Positions 17,002-39,090 of a DNA stretch of 64,000 nucleotides are shown here, one piece after another; the stretch's first letter is position 1, and each line of letters starts with the position of its first letter. Position numbers and translations under genes: made by a program. The notes beneath the pieces were generated by a model. That model saw only the letters and a program-made list of their open reading frames with translations. It was not told the origin of the DNA and made no database searches. This DNA is from an uncultured Candidatus Bathyarchaeia archaeon (lineage in GTDB: Archaea; Thermoproteota; Bathyarchaeia; Bathyarchaeales; Bathyarchaeaceae), in NCBI GenBank assembly GCA_964623205.1, contig CAZUQX010000010.1, positions 5,152 to 69,151 of the forward strand, read 5' to 3'.

Positions 17002-17079
17002 TGGTAGCGGGGAGTTGATTTGAACAACCGATCTCTGGGTTATGAGCCCAGCGGGTTCACCTGGCTACCCCACCCCGCT
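17002..17079 (-). tRNA. tRNA-Met (CAT), initiator type, with encoded CCA
   Basis: The minus strand reads AGCGGGGTGGGGTAGCCAGGTGAACCCGCTGGGCTCATAACCCAGAGATCGGTTGTTCAAATCAACTCCCCGCTACCA. The acceptor pairs AGCGGGG/CCCCGCT with an A1:U72 end pair. The anticodon stem CTGGG/CCCAG has three G:C pairs next to the CAT loop, which is the archaeal initiator signature. Confidence 0.9.
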
Positions 17080-21412: not shown

Positions 21413-21532
21413 TCTCTATTCCTCTAATTTTTGCGGTTCAACCCTAATGGGTCACATCCCAACGGAACATTCCTTACGGAAAGCTTGTAGCTAAAAGCTA
21501 AAGAATAGTTAATAAACCTTTTTCAGCCTACT

Positions 21533-23263
21533 TTAATTTTGGATAGGCAGCTTAATCGTGAAAATTGATCCTTTACCTTCTTCGCTTTCCACCTCAATAC
21601 TACCCCCATTACGATCGACAAATTTTTTGCAAATGGCTAAACCCATACCCATGCCTTGAGCCTTGGTAGTGAAGAAAGGAGTGAAGAGTTGCTTCATGAT
21701 TTCTTTTGACATACCAACACCTGTATCTTTGAAACTCACTTCAATGAAACCGTTTGTTTTTTTGGTTGAGACTTCTAAAGTTCCCCCATTCTGCATTGCC
21801 TGCATCCCATTTGTAACAATGTTTACAAAAGTCCTTTTTATCATGTCTTTATCCACCTCTATTAATGGAAGCGGATTCAGTTCTGTGATTATTTCCACGT
21901 TCTTTGGTGCTTTACATCTATGCAAAGCACCCCTGACTATCTTGTTAATATCAACCTTTTTGGCAACGGGTTTTCTTTCTGATGAAAAATCTTTCAAATC
22001 TTTTACTATGTTATCAGCATATTCAATTGAAACCTCCATAATTTCAAGCATGTTTAACGAATTTTCAAAAATTGGATTTGTTGCATTAATGCTTTTTAGT
22101 TCGTTTTTGATGCAATATGCTGCGTTTTCGATTGCTTGTAAAGGATTTCGGAGGTCATGACCAACCATAGTAGCTGCTCGACCTATAGCAGCAAGCTTCT
22201 CGGACTTGAGAAGAAGCTCCTCCATCCGCTTGTTTTCGGTGATGTCACGGACAATGACAACAGCTCCATTAATTTGTCCTTCCTTGTTTCTCACTACTGA
22301 AGCAGAAAAACTGACAGGAATTTCTTCATTAGATTTTGTTTTATATCTTGTCTCATGATTTTTAAATCCCCCTTTTCTAAACAATCTTTCTAACTTTTTG
22401 CTCATAAATTGTTCTTCTTTGAAAAGCACATCAACTGATTTCCCAATCAGTTCAGCTTCTGTGTATCCTAGAAGATTGACTAATGATTGATTAACTGTCA
22501 GTATTTTTCCTTCACGGTCGATCAGAATAAGCGAGTCGGGCATTGTCGAGATAATATTTTCTGCTACTGTTACTGGATTTAACGCGAACAATTCATATTT
22601 CCAAATCGCATATCCAACAAAAATGCACAGCATAGTAGTAGAGATTACGCTAAGATCTGGAACTCTGAATTGTGACAGTATGGGTAAAAACTCTGATGCT
22701 AAAGAAACAACAATTGGAATTGAAAACGCGACGCTCACAAATTTAGCCTGTTTTTTCTTTCTACCCGTCTCTTTCAAATAATATCTAATACATAAAAGAA
22801 GCGCCAAAAATCCTAATGCAAAAAGCCAAATGGAACTCGTCCAGAAAAGCAAAGAATTTTCTGGAATGGAATACGTATAAACCCCATTTGCTTTTACTGG
22901 TTCACCACTTATTAGATCAGTAGTTAATCCAAAAATAGAGAAGAATAACGCTGGAAAATATATCAGAAAATTGGTGAAAAATTTACTTAGTATTTTTGTA
23001 TTCCCAGTAAAAAGAAGTGAAAAATGAAACAAAAGCGCGACAGAAAAAGGCCATAAGAACCCAATTTTAAACCATGAATAAGCAGCGGCAAAGCTTTCCG
23101 CTTGAAGAATCATAAAATCGGTGAAAGCCCAGTAGGAAATCGACACGCACATGAGCATAAAAATTTTGTTGATCTGATTTTTCTTGTTCAGGTGGTATAC
23201 AAAATTTCCTAAAAGCAAACAAAGACAAAAAGATATCAAAGAAGAAAAAGCAAAAATGTTCAT
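21533..23263 (-). CDS. Membrane sensor histidine kinase (multi-TM N-terminus + PAS + HisKA + HATPase)
   Basis: It has about seven hydrophobic helices, a PAS domain ending in RDITENK, the H-box MVGHDLRNPL, and ATPase boxes that are near-identical to those of the 10080-11297 kinase (TNGFIEVSFKDTGVGM, FTPFFTTKAQGMGMGL). Confidence 0.9.
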   Translation of the reverse strand: MNIFAFSSLISFCLCLLLGNFVYHLNKKNQINKIFMLMCVSISYWAFTDFMILQAESFAAAYSWFKIGFLWPFSVALLFHFSLLFTGNTKILSKFFTNFLIYFPALFFSIFGLTTDLISGEPVKANGVYTYSIPENSLLFWTSSIWLFALGFLALLLCIRYYLKETGRKKKQAKFVSVAFSIPIVVSLASEFLPILSQFRVPDLSVISTTMLCIFVGYAIWKYELFALNPVTVAENIISTMPDSLILIDREGKILTVNQSLVNLLGYTEAELIGKSVDVLFKEEQFMSKKLERLFRKGGFKNHETRYKTKSNEEIPVSFSASVVRNKEGQINGAVVIVRDITENKRMEELLLKSEKLAAIGRAATMVGHDLRNPLQAIENAAYCIKNELKSINATNPIFENSLNMLEIMEVSIEYADNIVKDLKDFSSERKPVAKKVDINKIVRGALHRCKAPKNVEIITELNPLPLIEVDKDMIKRTFVNIVTNGMQAMQNGGTLEVSTKKTNGFIEVSFKDTGVGMSKEIMKQLFTPFFTTKAQGMGMGLAICKKFVDRNGGSIEVESEEGKGSIFTIKLPIQN

Positions 23264-30490: not shown

Positions 30491-30895
30491 TTATTTATAA
30501 ATTCCTATTCCGCCAGGCCAGTCTATTTGCTTCAAATGGTTGAATGCATCGTATATTTTTTGTTCCTCTTCCCTAGTTGGTTTCTTTGTTTTAAATCTAA
30601 TTCCGAAAGAGTAATTACCTGACCAAAACGTCACAAACGGTATTACTCCCGATTTCCCAGTTTCTTTCTTCAACTTTTTTATTGCTTTCTCAAGCTTTGT
30701 GTTGCTAGGTCTAAAAAAAATTTCTATGGGATAGGCTATGAGCCAACCAGAACTGTGGAAATACAAATCTGGATAATGATATGAATTGATGGGCTCTAAG
30801 GGATGCGCTATTTCAAAAAAAAGTTCATCATTACAAATACCTAAAAATTTATTCTCATCCTTACGCACACACCCAGTCCTCTGTGCAAATGTCAT
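30491..30895 (-). CDS. Hypothetical protein (134 aa) in an AT-rich islet
   Basis: It has an ATGA overlap with the upstream 80-aa ORF and no recognisable motif. Confidence 0.45.
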   Translation of the reverse strand: MTFAQRTGCVRKDENKFLGICNDELFFEIAHPLEPINSYHYPDLYFHSSGWLIAYPIEIFFRPSNTKLEKAIKKLKKETGKSGVIPFVTFWSGNYSFGIRFKTKKPTREEEQKIYDAFNHLKQIDWPGGIGIYK

Positions 30896-36431: not shown

Positions 36432-36600
36432 GTCGCTGTACCTTTTTGCGATTTAAAGTGTGCAACACGGAACTTTATTAAATTATTCGCGCTCACATAG
36501 ACGAAGATTACTCTCTGAAATGATTCTCTCAAGGCTCATAGAATATTTTGAACCAAAGTTACACTGGTCTGAAAAACATCAAGCTTTACTGCCGATGGCT

Positions 36601-37617
36601 CTATTTTATCATAGCCGAGTAGTATCTTTGGTTGTCCACAAGAAAGAACTTTTTGAGTATGTCCAAGAAGGAATTTTCCAATTCAATGTTCTTTCGAGTG
36701 GCATATTTGGAATCGTAGAATGTTTCTCCATAGATTTGTTTTCCTTGTCTAAGCGCTCGCTTTACCCATCCTAAATCGAATCTGTCTTTGATTCCGTACA
36801 TTGGCATTTTTTTGAACATAGGATGAAGCTCTTGGTATTCTCTCGTGAAATCATTGTAAAGCTTGTGGAATTCATCTGTCCAGAAACTGGGATGATAGCA
36901 AGGCGCGTTCTCGTTGCAGACAAGAGTCATCCTTTCGTCAGATTTGCCTTCTCTAAGCAGAAATGATTCATTTATTCCAAACCCTGCAATAATCATTGAC
37001 CTCAGGTTTGGAAGGTTCAACTGCTCCAGAGCAAAATAACTGTTGAGATTATACTTGAATAGCTCATCTGATGATTGCCGTGTGAGCAACTTAAATTCTT
37101 CAGGATTCGTTCCCTTTATTGATGTTTCTATCGCTACCTTCACTGAAGAATTAATATCGTATAACTCTTCGAGATATCTTTTGATTTGGTTTGTGTTTCC
37201 CATACCTGGATAAATCCCATTTGTCTGGATTATTATTCCATTATTGAATTTTTTGCTATCTATTTCGCTTATTTTGATTAGCGCTTCAAAAAGGTATTTT
37301 ACATACTTTTCACCGAGAAGAGGTTCTCCTCCAAGCACTCTAAGCCAATTGTAATTACTGTACCCTGAAGGATAAGGAATCACCTTGTAATCCTCAACAA
37401 CGTCATCAGTTGTCTTCTCATTTGTAACATTTCTATTTTTGATGTATTTTTCTGGCCAAGAATAACCAGACGCGAAACACAAACCACAACTCAAATTACA
37501 CCCCGCAAATCTCAGTGAAATTTCATAAGGAGCATTACCACATTTTTGAACAGCCATCGTCTTATCGTAATTTCTGTTCGGAGATCCATATGATTTCTGC
37601 AAATAGATATAAACCAT
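36601..37617 (-). CDS. Radical SAM enzyme of unassigned subfamily (QueE/activase-like core + unknown C-terminal extension)
   Basis: It has the Cx3Cx2C motif CNLSCGLC inside LRFAGCNLSCGLCF, plus GGEPLL and IIQTNG core motifs. The C-terminal ~150 aa have no motif I recognise. A GGAGG lies 8 nt upstream of the ATG, inside the 3' end of the HNH gene. Confidence 0.8.
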   Translation of the reverse strand: MVYIYLQKSYGSPNRNYDKTMAVQKCGNAPYEISLRFAGCNLSCGLCFASGYSWPEKYIKNRNVTNEKTTDDVVEDYKVIPYPSGYSNYNWLRVLGGEPLLGEKYVKYLFEALIKISEIDSKKFNNGIIIQTNGIYPGMGNTNQIKRYLEELYDINSSVKVAIETSIKGTNPEEFKLLTRQSSDELFKYNLNSYFALEQLNLPNLRSMIIAGFGINESFLLREGKSDERMTLVCNENAPCYHPSFWTDEFHKLYNDFTREYQELHPMFKKMPMYGIKDRFDLGWVKRALRQGKQIYGETFYDSKYATRKNIELENSFLDILKKFFLVDNQRYYSAMIK

Positions 37618-37618
37618 G

Positions 37619-38209
37619 TTAATTCCTCCCGAGGCTGACTTTGAAATCTGCTGGAGACGTAAATTGTAATGACCCTTCTAAGCAATAAACCGTAAATTTT
37701 GTTTCGTTACATAAACCGCCTAATCGGCAAATTTGGCAAAGCTCAACGAGCAAAGGAGTTCCTTTATTTAGTGTGCCATTTTTCTTATGAAGTTTGTAAA
37801 GGAGTTTTAGATATTTCCCCTCAACTACTCGAGGCAATTCATCACGGCGTTCGAGGCCATACCATTCGTAAACTCCTTTGTCACTTTTTGAGGAATTACA
37901 GCTTTTGCAGGCTAAGATTGCGTTATCTCCAATATCTGGGCCACCTCGACTTCGAGGAATCAGGTGATCAATTGAAAGGTCGCCTTGATTTCCGCAGTAA
38001 ATGCAAACTTTGTCACGTTCTAGATCTCGTATATATTCTCGAATTGAACCTGACCAACTAATTTTGCCACTTTGCAGTTTCTTGAACTGGCTCATTATAA
38101 AACCATAGTCTTTTTCATGACCAGATGACTTTGCCATGAGTTTTGCATATTGCCAATATATAATATCCCGAATTGTCTTCACTGCCGCGGGAGGCAAAAT
38201 GGACCCCAT
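37619..38209 (-). CDS. HNH endonuclease-domain protein
   Basis: The beta-beta-alpha-Me motif reads CIYCG...DLSIDHLIPRSRGGPDIGDNAILACKSCNSSK, with CxxC pairs flanking the D-H...N...N residues. The C-terminus is additionally Cys-rich (CQICRLGGLC). The TAA stop at 37619-37621 lies 1 nt from the radical-SAM ATG. Confidence 0.85.
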   Translation of the reverse strand: MGSILPPAAVKTIRDIIYWQYAKLMAKSSGHEKDYGFIMSQFKKLQSGKISWSGSIREYIRDLERDKVCIYCGNQGDLSIDHLIPRSRGGPDIGDNAILACKSCNSSKSDKGVYEWYGLERRDELPRVVEGKYLKLLYKLHKKNGTLNKGTPLLVELCQICRLGGLCNETKFTVYCLEGSLQFTSPADFKVSLGRN

Positions 38210-38511
38210 TAAACAGTAGGAGACTCACAATATTAGACTTTGGTTAAATCGCGAAAAAATAGAACGCTGGCGAAAAATATAACCCAAGCCGAGGCAATGG
38301 TAGTCCAAATGTTTCCTTTACATATACCAAGAACGGCGGCACATTTTAGTCGTTAAATTCATTGTTTATTGCAGGTAACACATTGGTTAATGCAGATGTC
38401 TGAGGTTTGTTTTTTCGCCTTGGTTGGATGTGTGACCTTTCGGGGGAATTGTTCATGGGGAAGTGTTTAATATATAAACAAGATTAAACAGTTTACGTTT
38501 AGAAAATAAAC

Positions 38512-39090
38512 ATGGTGAATGGGTTGGACGAAGTCGATCGAAAGATAATTTCGCAACTTCAACAGAACGGAAGAACAACCCTTGAAGAGCTGGCGAAAAT
38601 TGTTGGTTTTTCAAGCATGGGAGCAAAGAAAAGAGTTGATAAGCTTGTGGAAAAGGGAATCATCAAAGTTACATCACTTCTCAGCATCAAAAAACTAGGA
38701 TTGCAGGCCGCGATTGTGTTAATGGAGATTGAAAGCTCTGAAGCATTGGACAAACTTCTTGAACGCTTCAAGGACTGCCCTCGTGTAGTAAACATATTCA
38801 CAACCTTAGGTGGGTACAATTTGATTGCCGTAGTGGTTGCTGAAGACCAAGATACATTAGAGAGCATTTCCCTGGAAAAATGTTCATTAAGAAGTAGCGA
38901 AGGAATACGGCGTTCTGAATTCATTCCCATCGGCAACATTCTCTACTCTCCATTTCTAGCTTTTCGGGAGCATCTAACACACAGAGAGAAAACAACGGCG
39001 CCGTGCAATGTAGATTGCCGAACTTGCAAAAGATACAAGGCAGAATGTGCTGGATGCCCAGCAGCAAATTACTATGTTGGAAAGTTGTGA
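38512..39090 (+). CDS. Lrp/AsnC-type regulator with a C-terminal Cys-rich extension
   Basis: It has the HTH VDRKIISQLQQNGRTTLEELAKIVGFSSMGAKKRVDKLVEKGII, a RAM-like middle region and a tail APCNVDCRTCKRYKAECAGCPAANYY. Confidence 0.7.
   Translation: MVNGLDEVDRKIISQLQQNGRTTLEELAKIVGFSSMGAKKRVDKLVEKGIIKVTSLLSIKKLGLQAAIVLMEIESSEALDKLLERFKDCPRVVNIFTTLGGYNLIAVVVAEDQDTLESISLEKCSLRSSEGIRRSEFIPIGNILYSPFLAFREHLTHREKTTAPCNVDCRTCKRYKAECAGCPAANYYVGKL

Follow-up and report, generated by a model that had tools for sequence, protein, structure and literature searches.

Two minus-strand genes were found in tandem in the 64,000-nucleotide stretch of DNA analyzed here (hereafter, the window). The upstream gene, identified from its ORF and translation, encodes an HNH endonuclease of 196 amino acids (37619..38209), and the downstream ORF encodes a radical-SAM (rSAM) protein of 338 amino acids from an unnamed family (36601..37617). 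Reading of the junction placed the HNH stop codon TAA at 37621–37619, followed by the single base 37618 and then by the rSAM ATG at 37617–37615. A Shine–Dalgarno-like GGAGG lies on the same strand within the 3′ end of the HNH gene (37625..37629), 7 nt before the rSAM ATG, and GGAGG or GGAG-like motifs were also present in the short HNH–rSAM spacers of close relatives (L012, L013, L043, L061, and L063). The 1-nt gap was unique to the window locus; the gaps of the relatives were 11–47 nt, indicating that co-transcription is kept and stop/start coupling is not. A TAATATT element (38229..38235, minus strand), ~23 nt 5′ of the HNH ATG, is a candidate archaeal TATA box, and its placement would mean a leaderless or short-leader bicistronic transcript. 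A T5 run (36572..36576, minus strand), 25 nt past the rSAM stop, is a candidate archaeal terminator that would part the pair from znuA, which has a TTTAAAT box ~19 nt (centre ~22 nt) 5′ of its own ATG.

The znuA, znuC, and znuB genes lie downstream of the pair, and a divergent regulator of the Lrp/AsnC type, whose C-terminal tail is Cys-rich, lies upstream (38512..39090, plus strand; Pfam HTH_24, HTH_AsnC-type, and AsnC_trans_reg). This regulator is a possible local regulator of the pair; the gene was not kept beside the pair at the other loci compared. No methylase, integrase, or other defense gene was found among the 8 nearest flanking genes (about 31.5–42 kb), and the context of the pair in the window is housekeeping, not a defense island. 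The GC content of the rSAM gene was 0.370 (z −2.3), compared with a mean of 0.449 ± 0.034 over 60 window ORFs, and the GC3 of the HNH gene was 0.340 (z −2.2 relative to the same ORFs, n = 60). The znu genes had a GC content of 0.45–0.47, and the pair was AT-richer than its surroundings. A sequence-only reading of this DNA had described a tight cassette with a 1-nt gap and a GGAGG in the HNH 3′ end, set between a znu operon and an Lrp-type regulator, more AT-rich than the znu genes and with no methyltransferase or integrase present; the present analysis confirmed each of these points.

The HNH protein begins with a helical region, which is followed by a Cas9/IscB-type beta-beta-alpha-Me core and, toward the C-terminus, by a four-Cys motif. 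The motifs CIYCG, DHLIPRSRGG, and NAILACKSCN were found in the translation, as that reading had noted, and the protein matched the Pfam HNH model (PF01844; E = 1.2e-12, 48.1 bits vs. a cut-off of 21.4). Across the family alignment, the core residues C69xxC72, D81-H82, N96, and C101xxC104-N105 were all invariant, and the same was true of C158, C161, C167, and C176 in the tail, which form a CX2CX5CX8C motif. The catalytic D-H and Asn residues and the CxxC...CxxC zinc site of the HNH superfamily are present, and the protein carries a complete Cas9/IscB-type catalytic core and two putative Cys4 metal sites. The best partial NCBIfam matches were the HNH domains of Cas9d and IscB. Foldseek searches with the AF2 model (pLDDT 78) gave matches confined to the Cas9 and Gme HNH domains, with no fold match for the N- and C-terminal parts. 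The PADLOC model mREase_IV matched the window HNH protein no better than E = 1e-3, and no SRA, EVE, or SBD reader domain was recognizable in it.

In the rSAM protein, the motifs LRFAGCNLSCGLCF, GGEPLL, and QTNG were confirmed in the translation. The Pfam Radical_SAM model (PF04055) covered residues 38–216 (E = 2.9e-8, 34.5 bits vs. a cut-off of 29.5), and the C-terminal ~120 aa had no Pfam match, which bears out the earlier description of an rSAM core with a motif-less C-terminal extension. C40x3C44x2C47 was invariant in 29 aligned homologues, C26 being the sole invariant Cys beyond this CX3CX2C. Further motifs were GGEP (invariant), IQTNG, and ExSxKGxN, and the family-specific C-terminal part was marked by H242, W246, P272-M273-x-G275, and FFLVDNQxYYS. 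The AF2 model (pLDDT 95.7) showed a single compact fold of alternating beta and alpha elements, and all of its significant Foldseek matches were rSAM enzymes. The CX3CX2C motif, barrel fold, and GGE-type SAM-binding motif place the protein in the radical SAM superfamily, and the SAM-cluster site is complete. No PDB or BFVD structure reached a TM-score above 0.43 in Foldseek, the closest viral QueE-like structure scoring 0.43, and a profile search of PDB sequences returned core matches to CteB and MoaA only. Inspection of longer rSAM relatives revealed no informative domain fusions. The rSAM protein is a member of a small, unnamed, mostly archaeal family without a close solved or viral structure.

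The conservation of the pair was assessed in related loci. The HNH gene was directly upstream of the rSAM gene, on the same strand, in 24 loci besides the window, so that the adjacency check raised by the sequence-only reading gave a positive result within one clade with variable flanks. Loci L098–L101 share the arrangement and may partly repeat contigs of the metagenome scan (e.g., L101 and L023). In the tree, the HNH-linked rSAMs formed one monophyletic clade of 23 tips. The HNH gene was present at 24/24 clade loci with upstream sequence, no loss was seen, and orientation and short spacing were always retained. No gene clusters were common to the flanks of these loci, which included znuABC and Lrp in the window, purine genes at a locus with 82% identity, and a methylase, large unknown ORFs, and HEPN_AbiV at one with 67% identity. 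The two genes co-diverged (Mantel r = 0.79, a value reached in 0/2000 permutations), and dN/dS was ~0.08 for both, with dS of ~0.7 or more (medians 1.5–1.8). These results show that both genes are intact, under purifying selection, and inherited as a unit across the clade while their neighbors turn over. At L016, the rSAM protein was 74–80% identical to those of the clade, and the HNH protein in the same position was only ~40% identical and of the same HNH family. The HNH linkage arose once, and its persistence could partly reflect operon inertia.

Outside the linked clade, rSAM family members (≤61% identity) had no such HNH neighbor. An exhaustive HMM search found 24 representatives of the rSAM family at E ≤ 1e-30 among 1.84 billion, together with a wider set of relatives that is likewise unnamed. 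A pattern-based scan of 185,579 species genomes placed the family at 7 loci, which is therefore a minimum count. Relatives in Bathyarchaeia and a match to an archaeal ribosomal leader were the indications as to the taxonomy of the window. The HNH family is large, with at least 772 clusters, usually free-standing in unrelated, housekeeping contexts; free-standing homologues were 59–67% identical across Thermoplasmata, Methanoperedens, Promethearchaeota, and Rokubacteria, and most members kept the Cys tail without any rSAM. A free-standing HNH had been named as a finding that would count against the module, and this is partly the case. The rSAM family had no match in IMG/VR, INPHARED phages, or PLSDB plasmids, and the HNH protein had partial or domain-level matches only in these sets; such absence is neutral with regard to defense. 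On a Halomarina megaplasmid, a homologue stands alone beside a restriction endonuclease.

The neighborhoods of the rSAM family were then surveyed. N6_N4 methylases were encoded 1–5 genes away from the pair at L015, L020, and L100, a linkage that was not constant, and DndB lay near the rSAM gene in L022. In a marine clade, a convergent MazG-like gene and an N-domain–HNH protein were found beside the rSAM gene, and the HNH half of the latter matched PADLOC mREase_IV (E = 2.7e-8) and an NCBIfam PT-DNA restriction model. The N-domain occurred alone directly upstream of the rSAM gene in L054, MazG-like genes were near it in L041 and L025, and the MazG/N-domain module was also found without any rSAM in L108. 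A DCD protein was encoded directly upstream of the rSAM gene in L040, DCD being confined to L036/L040. DCD is a PUA-like modified-base reader (PMC7641849). For the N-domain found with HNH in clade B, neither Pfam nor PDB sequences gave a match, and hhalign against the DCD neighbor gave a probability of 0.3%; its reading as a PUA-like reader is therefore unproven. Among 148 flanking ORFs of the whole rSAM family, there were 4 integrases, 2 methylases, and 2 DndB, in a raw tally with no background model. Likewise with no background model, methylase, DndB, HEPN_AbiV, Cas1-like, or MazG-like neighbors were present in ~5 of ~10 informative clade-A contexts, and some rSAM–neighbor associations rest on one lineage. 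Housekeeping contexts also occurred, with ribosomal proteins and DTD in L002 and with TIM, acylphosphatase, and ARMT1 around the relative in L082.

Of the readings considered, the one we favor, with a confidence somewhat short of even, is that the HNH and rSAM genes form a bicistronic accessory nucleic-acid operon, most likely one linked to conflict (anti-virus or anti-mobile-element) or to DNA modification. By way of a 5′-deoxyadenosyl radical, the rSAM protein would change either a nucleotide or a DNA or RNA base, making or removing a mark, and the HNH protein would cut DNA in dependence on this chemistry, serving the same pathway as its effector or telling marked from unmarked DNA. Many genomes tolerate HNH homologues that stand alone, which makes indiscriminate restriction by the HNH protein improbable; a requirement for a certain substrate state or for a partner is more likely. 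The kept adjacency, the co-divergence under purifying selection, the HNH replacement in place at L016, and the low GC of the pair relative to its neighbors count in favor of this reading. The rarity and patchiness of the rSAM family fit an accessory gene, and the independent links of this family to conflict genes support a role in nucleic-acid conflict. Against the conflict reading, the window and several relatives have housekeeping contexts, the HNH family is mostly free-standing, and most rSAM clades are HNH-less. The earlier interpretation as a defense or modification module is therefore partly supported: the two genes are a conserved, co-diverging unit with some conflict-gene neighbors, but the window itself is housekeeping and the QueE and viperin matches are weak. 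The pair is a credible candidate for a new module of nucleic-acid conflict or modification. A more specific version, which we regard as rather improbable, is that the rSAM protein makes or removes a novel radical-derived DNA or nucleotide mark, that the HNH protein reads this state and cuts DNA that is unmarked or foreign, and that the family is reused elsewhere with DCD, N-domain–HNH, and MazG-like proteins. Such a system would resemble restriction-modification immunity, with radical-SAM chemistry in place of methyl transfer as the modifying step.

The pair was compared with known systems. Searches of Pfam, NCBIfam, and PADLOC gave superfamily-level or sub-threshold matches only for both proteins and no named family, in line with the earlier statement that no named defense system could be matched. 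In PADLOC-DB v2, there were HNH-domain-level matches (PtuB, PDC-M01B, and Cas9; E ≥ 6.5e-6) and a weak match to pVip, and no system in it joins an HNH protein with this rSAM. None of the papers covered by the literature search describes an rSAM and HNH system; the systems that it did yield, Ophion and an EVE-linked B12-rSAM, differ from the pair. Ophion is an antiviral rSAM/PHP/PRTase system (bioRxiv 10.1101/2025.09.30.679545). As with pVips and Ophion, the rSAM protein is encoded by an accessory gene, sometimes in defense-type neighborhoods, but in the window it is partnered with an HNH nuclease instead of a kinase, PHP, or PRTase.

The analogies to viperin and QueE drawn in the sequence-only reading were weakened, as both were sub-threshold and neither enzyme was among the best 50 PDB fold matches of the rSAM protein. 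The PADLOC pVip match (E = 6.5e-5) covered the cluster-binding region 40–148 only, and the NCBIfam model viperin_w_prok (NF038283) scored 19.5 bits (E = 4.5e-4) vs. a cut-off of 180. With these scores and no viperin among those fold matches, a viperin or pVip identity was rejected; the C-terminal half of the rSAM protein, unlike that of viperins, is family-specific. The rSAM protein shares with QueE a compact activase/QueE-like cluster-binding N-terminus (Fer4_12, GGEPLL, and TNG), and the QueE/Dpd pathway offers a parallel in idea, namely a radical-SAM step feeding DNA modification coupled to restriction. However, the QueE model TIGR03963 scored 17.6 bits (E = 2.4e-3) vs. a cut-off of 260.1, and no QueC, QueD, FolE, DpdA, or TGT genes were among the flanking genes of the window pair, and a QueE identity was rejected on both grounds. 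ScoMcrA and SBD-HNH represent the Type IV/McrA-like HNH restriction enzymes and reader–HNH fusions (PMC7461809). The parallel to the present case is an HNH nuclease in a DNA-modification context, and it extends to the two-domain N-domain–HNH neighbor in another rSAM clade, whereas the window HNH protein has no recognizable reader and a core closest to the Cas9d/IscB HNH.

A different picture is suggested by spore photoproduct lyase (SPL), which, like the rSAM protein, is a ~340-aa single-domain enzyme with one extra conserved Cys. Its query-normalized TM-scores against the rSAM model (0.41–0.42 over ~330 columns) were weak but near the highest of any rSAM class in the PDB search. SPL uses a Cys/Tyr radical relay, and the invariant C26 of the rSAM protein could, by analogy, form a similar relay with Y52. 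The rSAM protein might then be a DNA-repair or housekeeping nucleic-acid enzyme, acting in SPL-like lesion reversal or as a tRNA/rRNA modifier, with one clade having recruited a nicking HNH helper and with no conflict function. The MazG-like house-cleaning pyrophosphatases and the ARMT1 damage-control phosphatase beside relatives, the housekeeping contexts of many loci including the window, and the chromosomal position of the rSAM genes, none of which occurred in the virus and plasmid sets searched, are consistent with this account. However, a TM-score of 0.42 with an rmsd of ~8 Å reflects the shared barrel and does not establish homology beyond it, and there was no sequence-level match to SPL. 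The rarity and patchy distribution of the rSAM family are also far from what a core role in repair or translation would require, and the methylase, DndB, HEPN_AbiV, type-IV-like HNH, DCD, and integrase neighbors better suit conflict systems. We consider a repair or housekeeping role unlikely.

The possibility that the two genes are functionally unrelated is held to be unlikely to the same degree. Here, a mobile free-standing HNH gene, selfish or with a role of its own, would have landed upstream of the rSAM gene once and since hitchhiked on a common transcript. The size of the HNH family, the high identity of its lone members across distant lineages in unrelated contexts, and the single origin of the linkage speak for this account. 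So does L016, where a distant HNH occupies the same site, as site-preferring mobile nucleases might do, and a small HNH ORF immediately upstream of another gene recalls free-standing homing endonucleases. Such nucleases, however, are expected to be sporadically present and to show decay, and the HNH gene was lost in 0/24 clade members with upstream sequence, although synonymous sites are close to saturation and the flanks have turned over completely. Its low dN/dS (0.08), invariant catalytic and Cys residues, constant orientation and short spacing, co-divergence with its partner, and single copy in the 64-kb window are also unlike them, and other rSAM clades have independently associated with a second, unrelated HNH protein. 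The idea that the rSAM protein is a maturase acting on the co-translated HNH protein, for example on its invariant CX2CX5CX8C tail, draws on the tight SD-coupled junction, the best partial NCBIfam matches (the peptide-modifying GggB, SCIFF, and PapB), and the activase-like Pfam Fer4_12 match, but it is very improbable, as these models scored 18–25 bits vs. cut-offs of 340–650, no SPASM/twitch auxiliary-cluster domain is present and no invariant Cys other than C26 was added to the CX3CX2C motif, most rSAMs are HNH-less, and most HNH proteins keep the Cys tail without an rSAM.

Should the two genes prove to be a working system, they would add a radical-SAM mechanism to nuclease-coupled immunity or genome-marking systems, and one from Bathyarchaeia-type archaea, whose defense biology is almost unexplored. 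The predicted rSAM fold is confident and compact and has no characterized relative, so that its substrate, once found, would establish a new class of radical-SAM reaction. The HNH protein, small and highly conserved, is related to the Cas9/IscB HNH domain and has an additional Cys4 site; it bears on the origin of those nucleases and might itself serve as a compact nuclease. Whether or not the defense reading holds, two conserved uncharacterized families and their recurrent partners (the N-domain/MazG-like module and the DCD protein) have been defined.

Elsewhere in the window, a low-GC ORF of 576 aa (21533–23263) was compared with an ORF of equal length that precedes the HNH–rSAM pair in L100, and their kinship was rejected, as BLASTP found no similarity. 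By our reading of its sequence motifs, the window ORF resembles a sensor histidine kinase.

Two minus-strand genes of the window, an HNH nuclease ORF (37619-38209, 196 aa; TAA stop 37621-37619) and a radical-SAM (rSAM) ORF (36601-37617, 338 aa; ATG start 37617-37615), are separated by a single base between stop and start, and a GGAGG (37629-37625, minus strand) lies within the HNH gene, 7 nt ahead of the rSAM ATG. ORFs, junction and GGAGG were all found as the sequence-only reading had described them. Downstream of the pair, znuA/C/B follow on the same strand; upstream lie a divergent Lrp/AsnC regulator, an MBL-fold protein, CbiZ and phosphofructokinase. The GC content of the rSAM gene was 0.370 (z -2.3, third lowest among 60 window ORFs) compared with a mean of 0.449 +/- 0.034 for window genes, and the GC3 of the HNH gene was 0.340 (z -2.2), in agreement with the earlier impression that the pair is AT-richer than the znu genes. 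Three candidate signals were read by eye: a TAATATT box (~23 nt ahead of the HNH start codon), a T5 run 25 nt beyond the stop codon of the rSAM, and a TTTAAAT box in front of znuA. They suggest that the pair is transcribed on its own as a bicistronic mRNA, which may be leaderless.

For the linkage survey, 86 loci encoding rSAM relatives were gathered (handles with the prefix L; coordinates local to each locus). Loci that included upstream sequence and had an rSAM at least ~61.5% identical to that of the window numbered 25. In 24 of them, all except L030, the gene immediately upstream encodes the same HNH in the same orientation as the rSAM; among the gathered loci below ~61.5% identity, none had the HNH upstream. 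The stop-to-start gap of the linked pairs was 1-47 nt throughout. In a neighbour-joining tree, the HNH-linked rSAMs all fell within one clade of 23 tips, with the unlinked L030 outside. No gene clusters were common to the flanks of different HNH-rSAM loci: an 82%-identity relative lies amid purine-biosynthesis genes, and the neighbours of a 67%-identity relative are a DNA methylase, four large unannotated ORFs, an Hjc/Cas4-like fragment and HEPN_AbiV. Pairwise protein distances of HNH and rSAM were correlated (Mantel r 0.79, 0/2000 permutations as high), and dN/dS was ~0.08 for both genes, with dS of 0.7-1.4 among the closest relatives and medians of 1.5-1.8. Together, the adjacency, single clade, unshared flanks, co-divergence and low dN/dS show that selection holds HNH and rSAM together within the HNH-linked clade. 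At L016, the rSAM is 74-80% identical to the clade, and the HNH at the same position (L016:4265-4849) is ~40% identical to other linked HNHs and carries two small insertions, yet keeps every family invariant; either a distant relative from the family has taken the place of the usual HNH, or the HNH is mobile with a preference for this site.

The rSAM matched Pfam PF04055 (E 2.9e-8, residues 38-216), and no Pfam match was found for its C-terminal ~120 aa. In profile searches, neither protein reached a curated-family cut-off; weak partial rSAM matches to peptide maturases, viperin, QueE and MoaA scored 15-25 bits against cut-offs of 170-650. The rSAM family is a small one, with ~120 clusters seen at 90% identity; when 1.84 billion cluster representatives were searched exhaustively with an HMM, only 24 matched at E<=1e-30 and 84 matched at E<=1e-10, with more distant relatives equally unnamed. 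Named members belong to Bathyarchaeia, Nitrososphaeria/Nitrososphaerales, Methanomethylicaceae and Thermodesulfovibrio/Nitrospiraceae; searches of IMG/VR, GenBank phages and PLSDB plasmids yielded no family member. The alignment showed invariant C26, C40x3C44x2C47, GGEP, IQTNG and ExSxKGxN, and a conserved C-terminal part with H242, W246, PMxG and FFLVDNQxYYS. The AlphaFold model was one compact domain (pLDDT 95.7). Judged from this model, the rSAM is an uncharacterised branch of the radical-SAM superfamily, because the Foldseek TM never exceeded 0.42 against PDB (leading matches GDGT-MAS, MoaA, LipA and spore photoproduct lyase) or 0.43 against viral models.

The HNH protein matched Pfam PF01844 (E 1.2e-12). 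A conserved helical region at its N terminus precedes a catalytic core like that of Cas9d/IscB, and its C-terminal part carries an invariant CX2CX5CX8C motif. Its family is far larger than that of the rSAM (at least 772 clusters), and relatives 59-67% identical to the window protein were found in Thermoplasmata, Methanoperedens, Promethearchaeota and Rokubacteria. On four long contigs the HNH was a lone gene in housekeeping surroundings unrelated to it, away from any rSAM, partly realizing the free-standing occurrence that the sequence-only reading had named as counting against its proposal. Many genomes tolerate the HNH family on its own, so indiscriminate restriction is an unlikely activity for it; cleavage may depend on a partner or on a particular state of the substrate. 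The linkage arose once, and most rSAM clades lack such an HNH neighbour. We consider it unlikely that the two genes are unrelated and merely held in a shared transcript since the HNH inserted there a single time. Strong purifying selection and an invariant active site are not what a homing endonuclease in decay would show. The pair is well supported as a conserved operon of two uncharacterised families.

In other clades, the rSAM family repeatedly adjoins nucleic-acid conflict or modification genes, although these associations are raw counts and several rest on one lineage. A marine clade (45-49% identity), probably Marinimicrobia to judge from the source given for an adjacent protein, encodes next to the rSAM a MazG-like pyrophosphatase, in convergent orientation, and a 253-aa protein. 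The C-terminal HNH of the latter matches type IV methyl-directed restriction and PT-DNA restriction models; its N-terminal domain (~135 aa, 139 clusters, no Pfam match) was also found at L102:9008-10112 and, alone and directly upstream of rSAM, at L054:433-846. At L108:5001-5753 this domain is followed at once by a MazG-like gene in an evident defence island with GmrSD_N, DEAD/MZB helicase and AbiEi_4 and no rSAM, and the two genes look like a candidate defence module in their own right. A DCD-domain protein (PF10539, E 2.8e-21; L040:348-743) lies 62 nt upstream of, and in the same orientation as, an rSAM homologue (~53% identity), with a degraded copy at L036:186-434; DCD is a PUA-like modified-base reader, rare in prokaryotes (PMC7641849).

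Within the HNH-linked clade, the pair is flanked by N6_N4 DNA methylases in L015, L020 and L100, by a DndB-like protein in L022, and by a Cas1-C-terminal-like ORF of 91-176 aa (weak PADLOC match, E 4e-4) at L001:4885-5313, L024:6590-7120 and L025:2945-3220. Four co-directional ORFs (599, 408, 407 and 576 aa; L100:1374-7393) between methylase and pair had no Pfam match and only weak PADLOC matches, to AriA and mad2; with HEPN_AbiV and an Hjc/Cas4-like fragment downstream, this gene set may be a larger system of a new kind. A raw tally of 148 de-duplicated flanking ORFs included four phage-type integrases, three AAA_22, two methylases, two DndB, a Schlafen-type helicase and a DarT1-associated NADAR. 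Plainly housekeeping contexts were seen in the window, L002 and L082, among other loci. The links to defence and DNA modification are circumstantial, and an rSAM that serves nucleic-acid repair or housekeeping and has recruited a nickase is an improbable alternative on our estimate.

Both active sites are intact, and the genes are co-inherited and co-diverging. We tentatively regard the pair as a nucleic-acid conflict or modification module, giving this slightly less than an even chance; the rSAM would act on a nucleotide or nucleic-acid base, and the HNH would cut DNA, coupled to that chemistry. The defence or modification interpretation made earlier is supported in part: the pair is a conserved unit outside all named systems, but free-standing HNHs and a linkage limited to one clade weaken the proposal. 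The earlier reading could not match the pair to a named defence system, and likewise the pair belonged to no PADLOC system, the rSAM giving only weak pVip matches; its profile scores were below cut-off for QueE and viperin, and it did not qualify as a SPASM maturase. A maturase acting on the HNH protein is highly improbable. In its proposed working the pair is most like R-M, Dpd and Dnd, in which a nucleic-acid-modifying enzyme is coupled to a nuclease; alternatively it can be likened to pVip, Ophion (bioRxiv 10.1101/2025.09.30.679545) and similar antiviral enzymes of the rSAM type. No published rSAM+HNH system was found in the literature searched.

Several minor observations were made. Beside rSAM homologues of different clades, two uncharacterised small proteins recur: one of 73-77 aa (MLDRDVVEEF...; L030:1696-1929, L055:783-1016, L040:2302-2523) and a ~80-118-aa double CxxC zinc-ribbon protein, divergently upstream (L002:2-196, L036:412-768, L058:1094-1333, L062:5485-5736). 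In L002 and L062, the rSAM homologue is closely followed by a stand-alone AsnC ligand-binding-domain gene; the Lrp/AsnC regulator of the window (38512-39090, plus strand) has a Cys-rich C-terminal tail (CNVDCRTCKRYKAECAGCP) absent from the standard family. The lowest-GC window ORFs are 30491-30895 (minus, 0.356) and 21533-23263 (minus, 0.358). The latter looks from its motifs like a PAS/histidine-kinase sensor and was unrelated to the 576-aa L100 ORF by sequence comparison. An Rfam match to the eL15-Euryarchaeota ribosomal-protein leader was found at 21430-21478 (minus; 39 bits against a gathering score of 33.7), in keeping with archaeal DNA, and the sole tRNA of the window is tRNA-Met (17002-17079).
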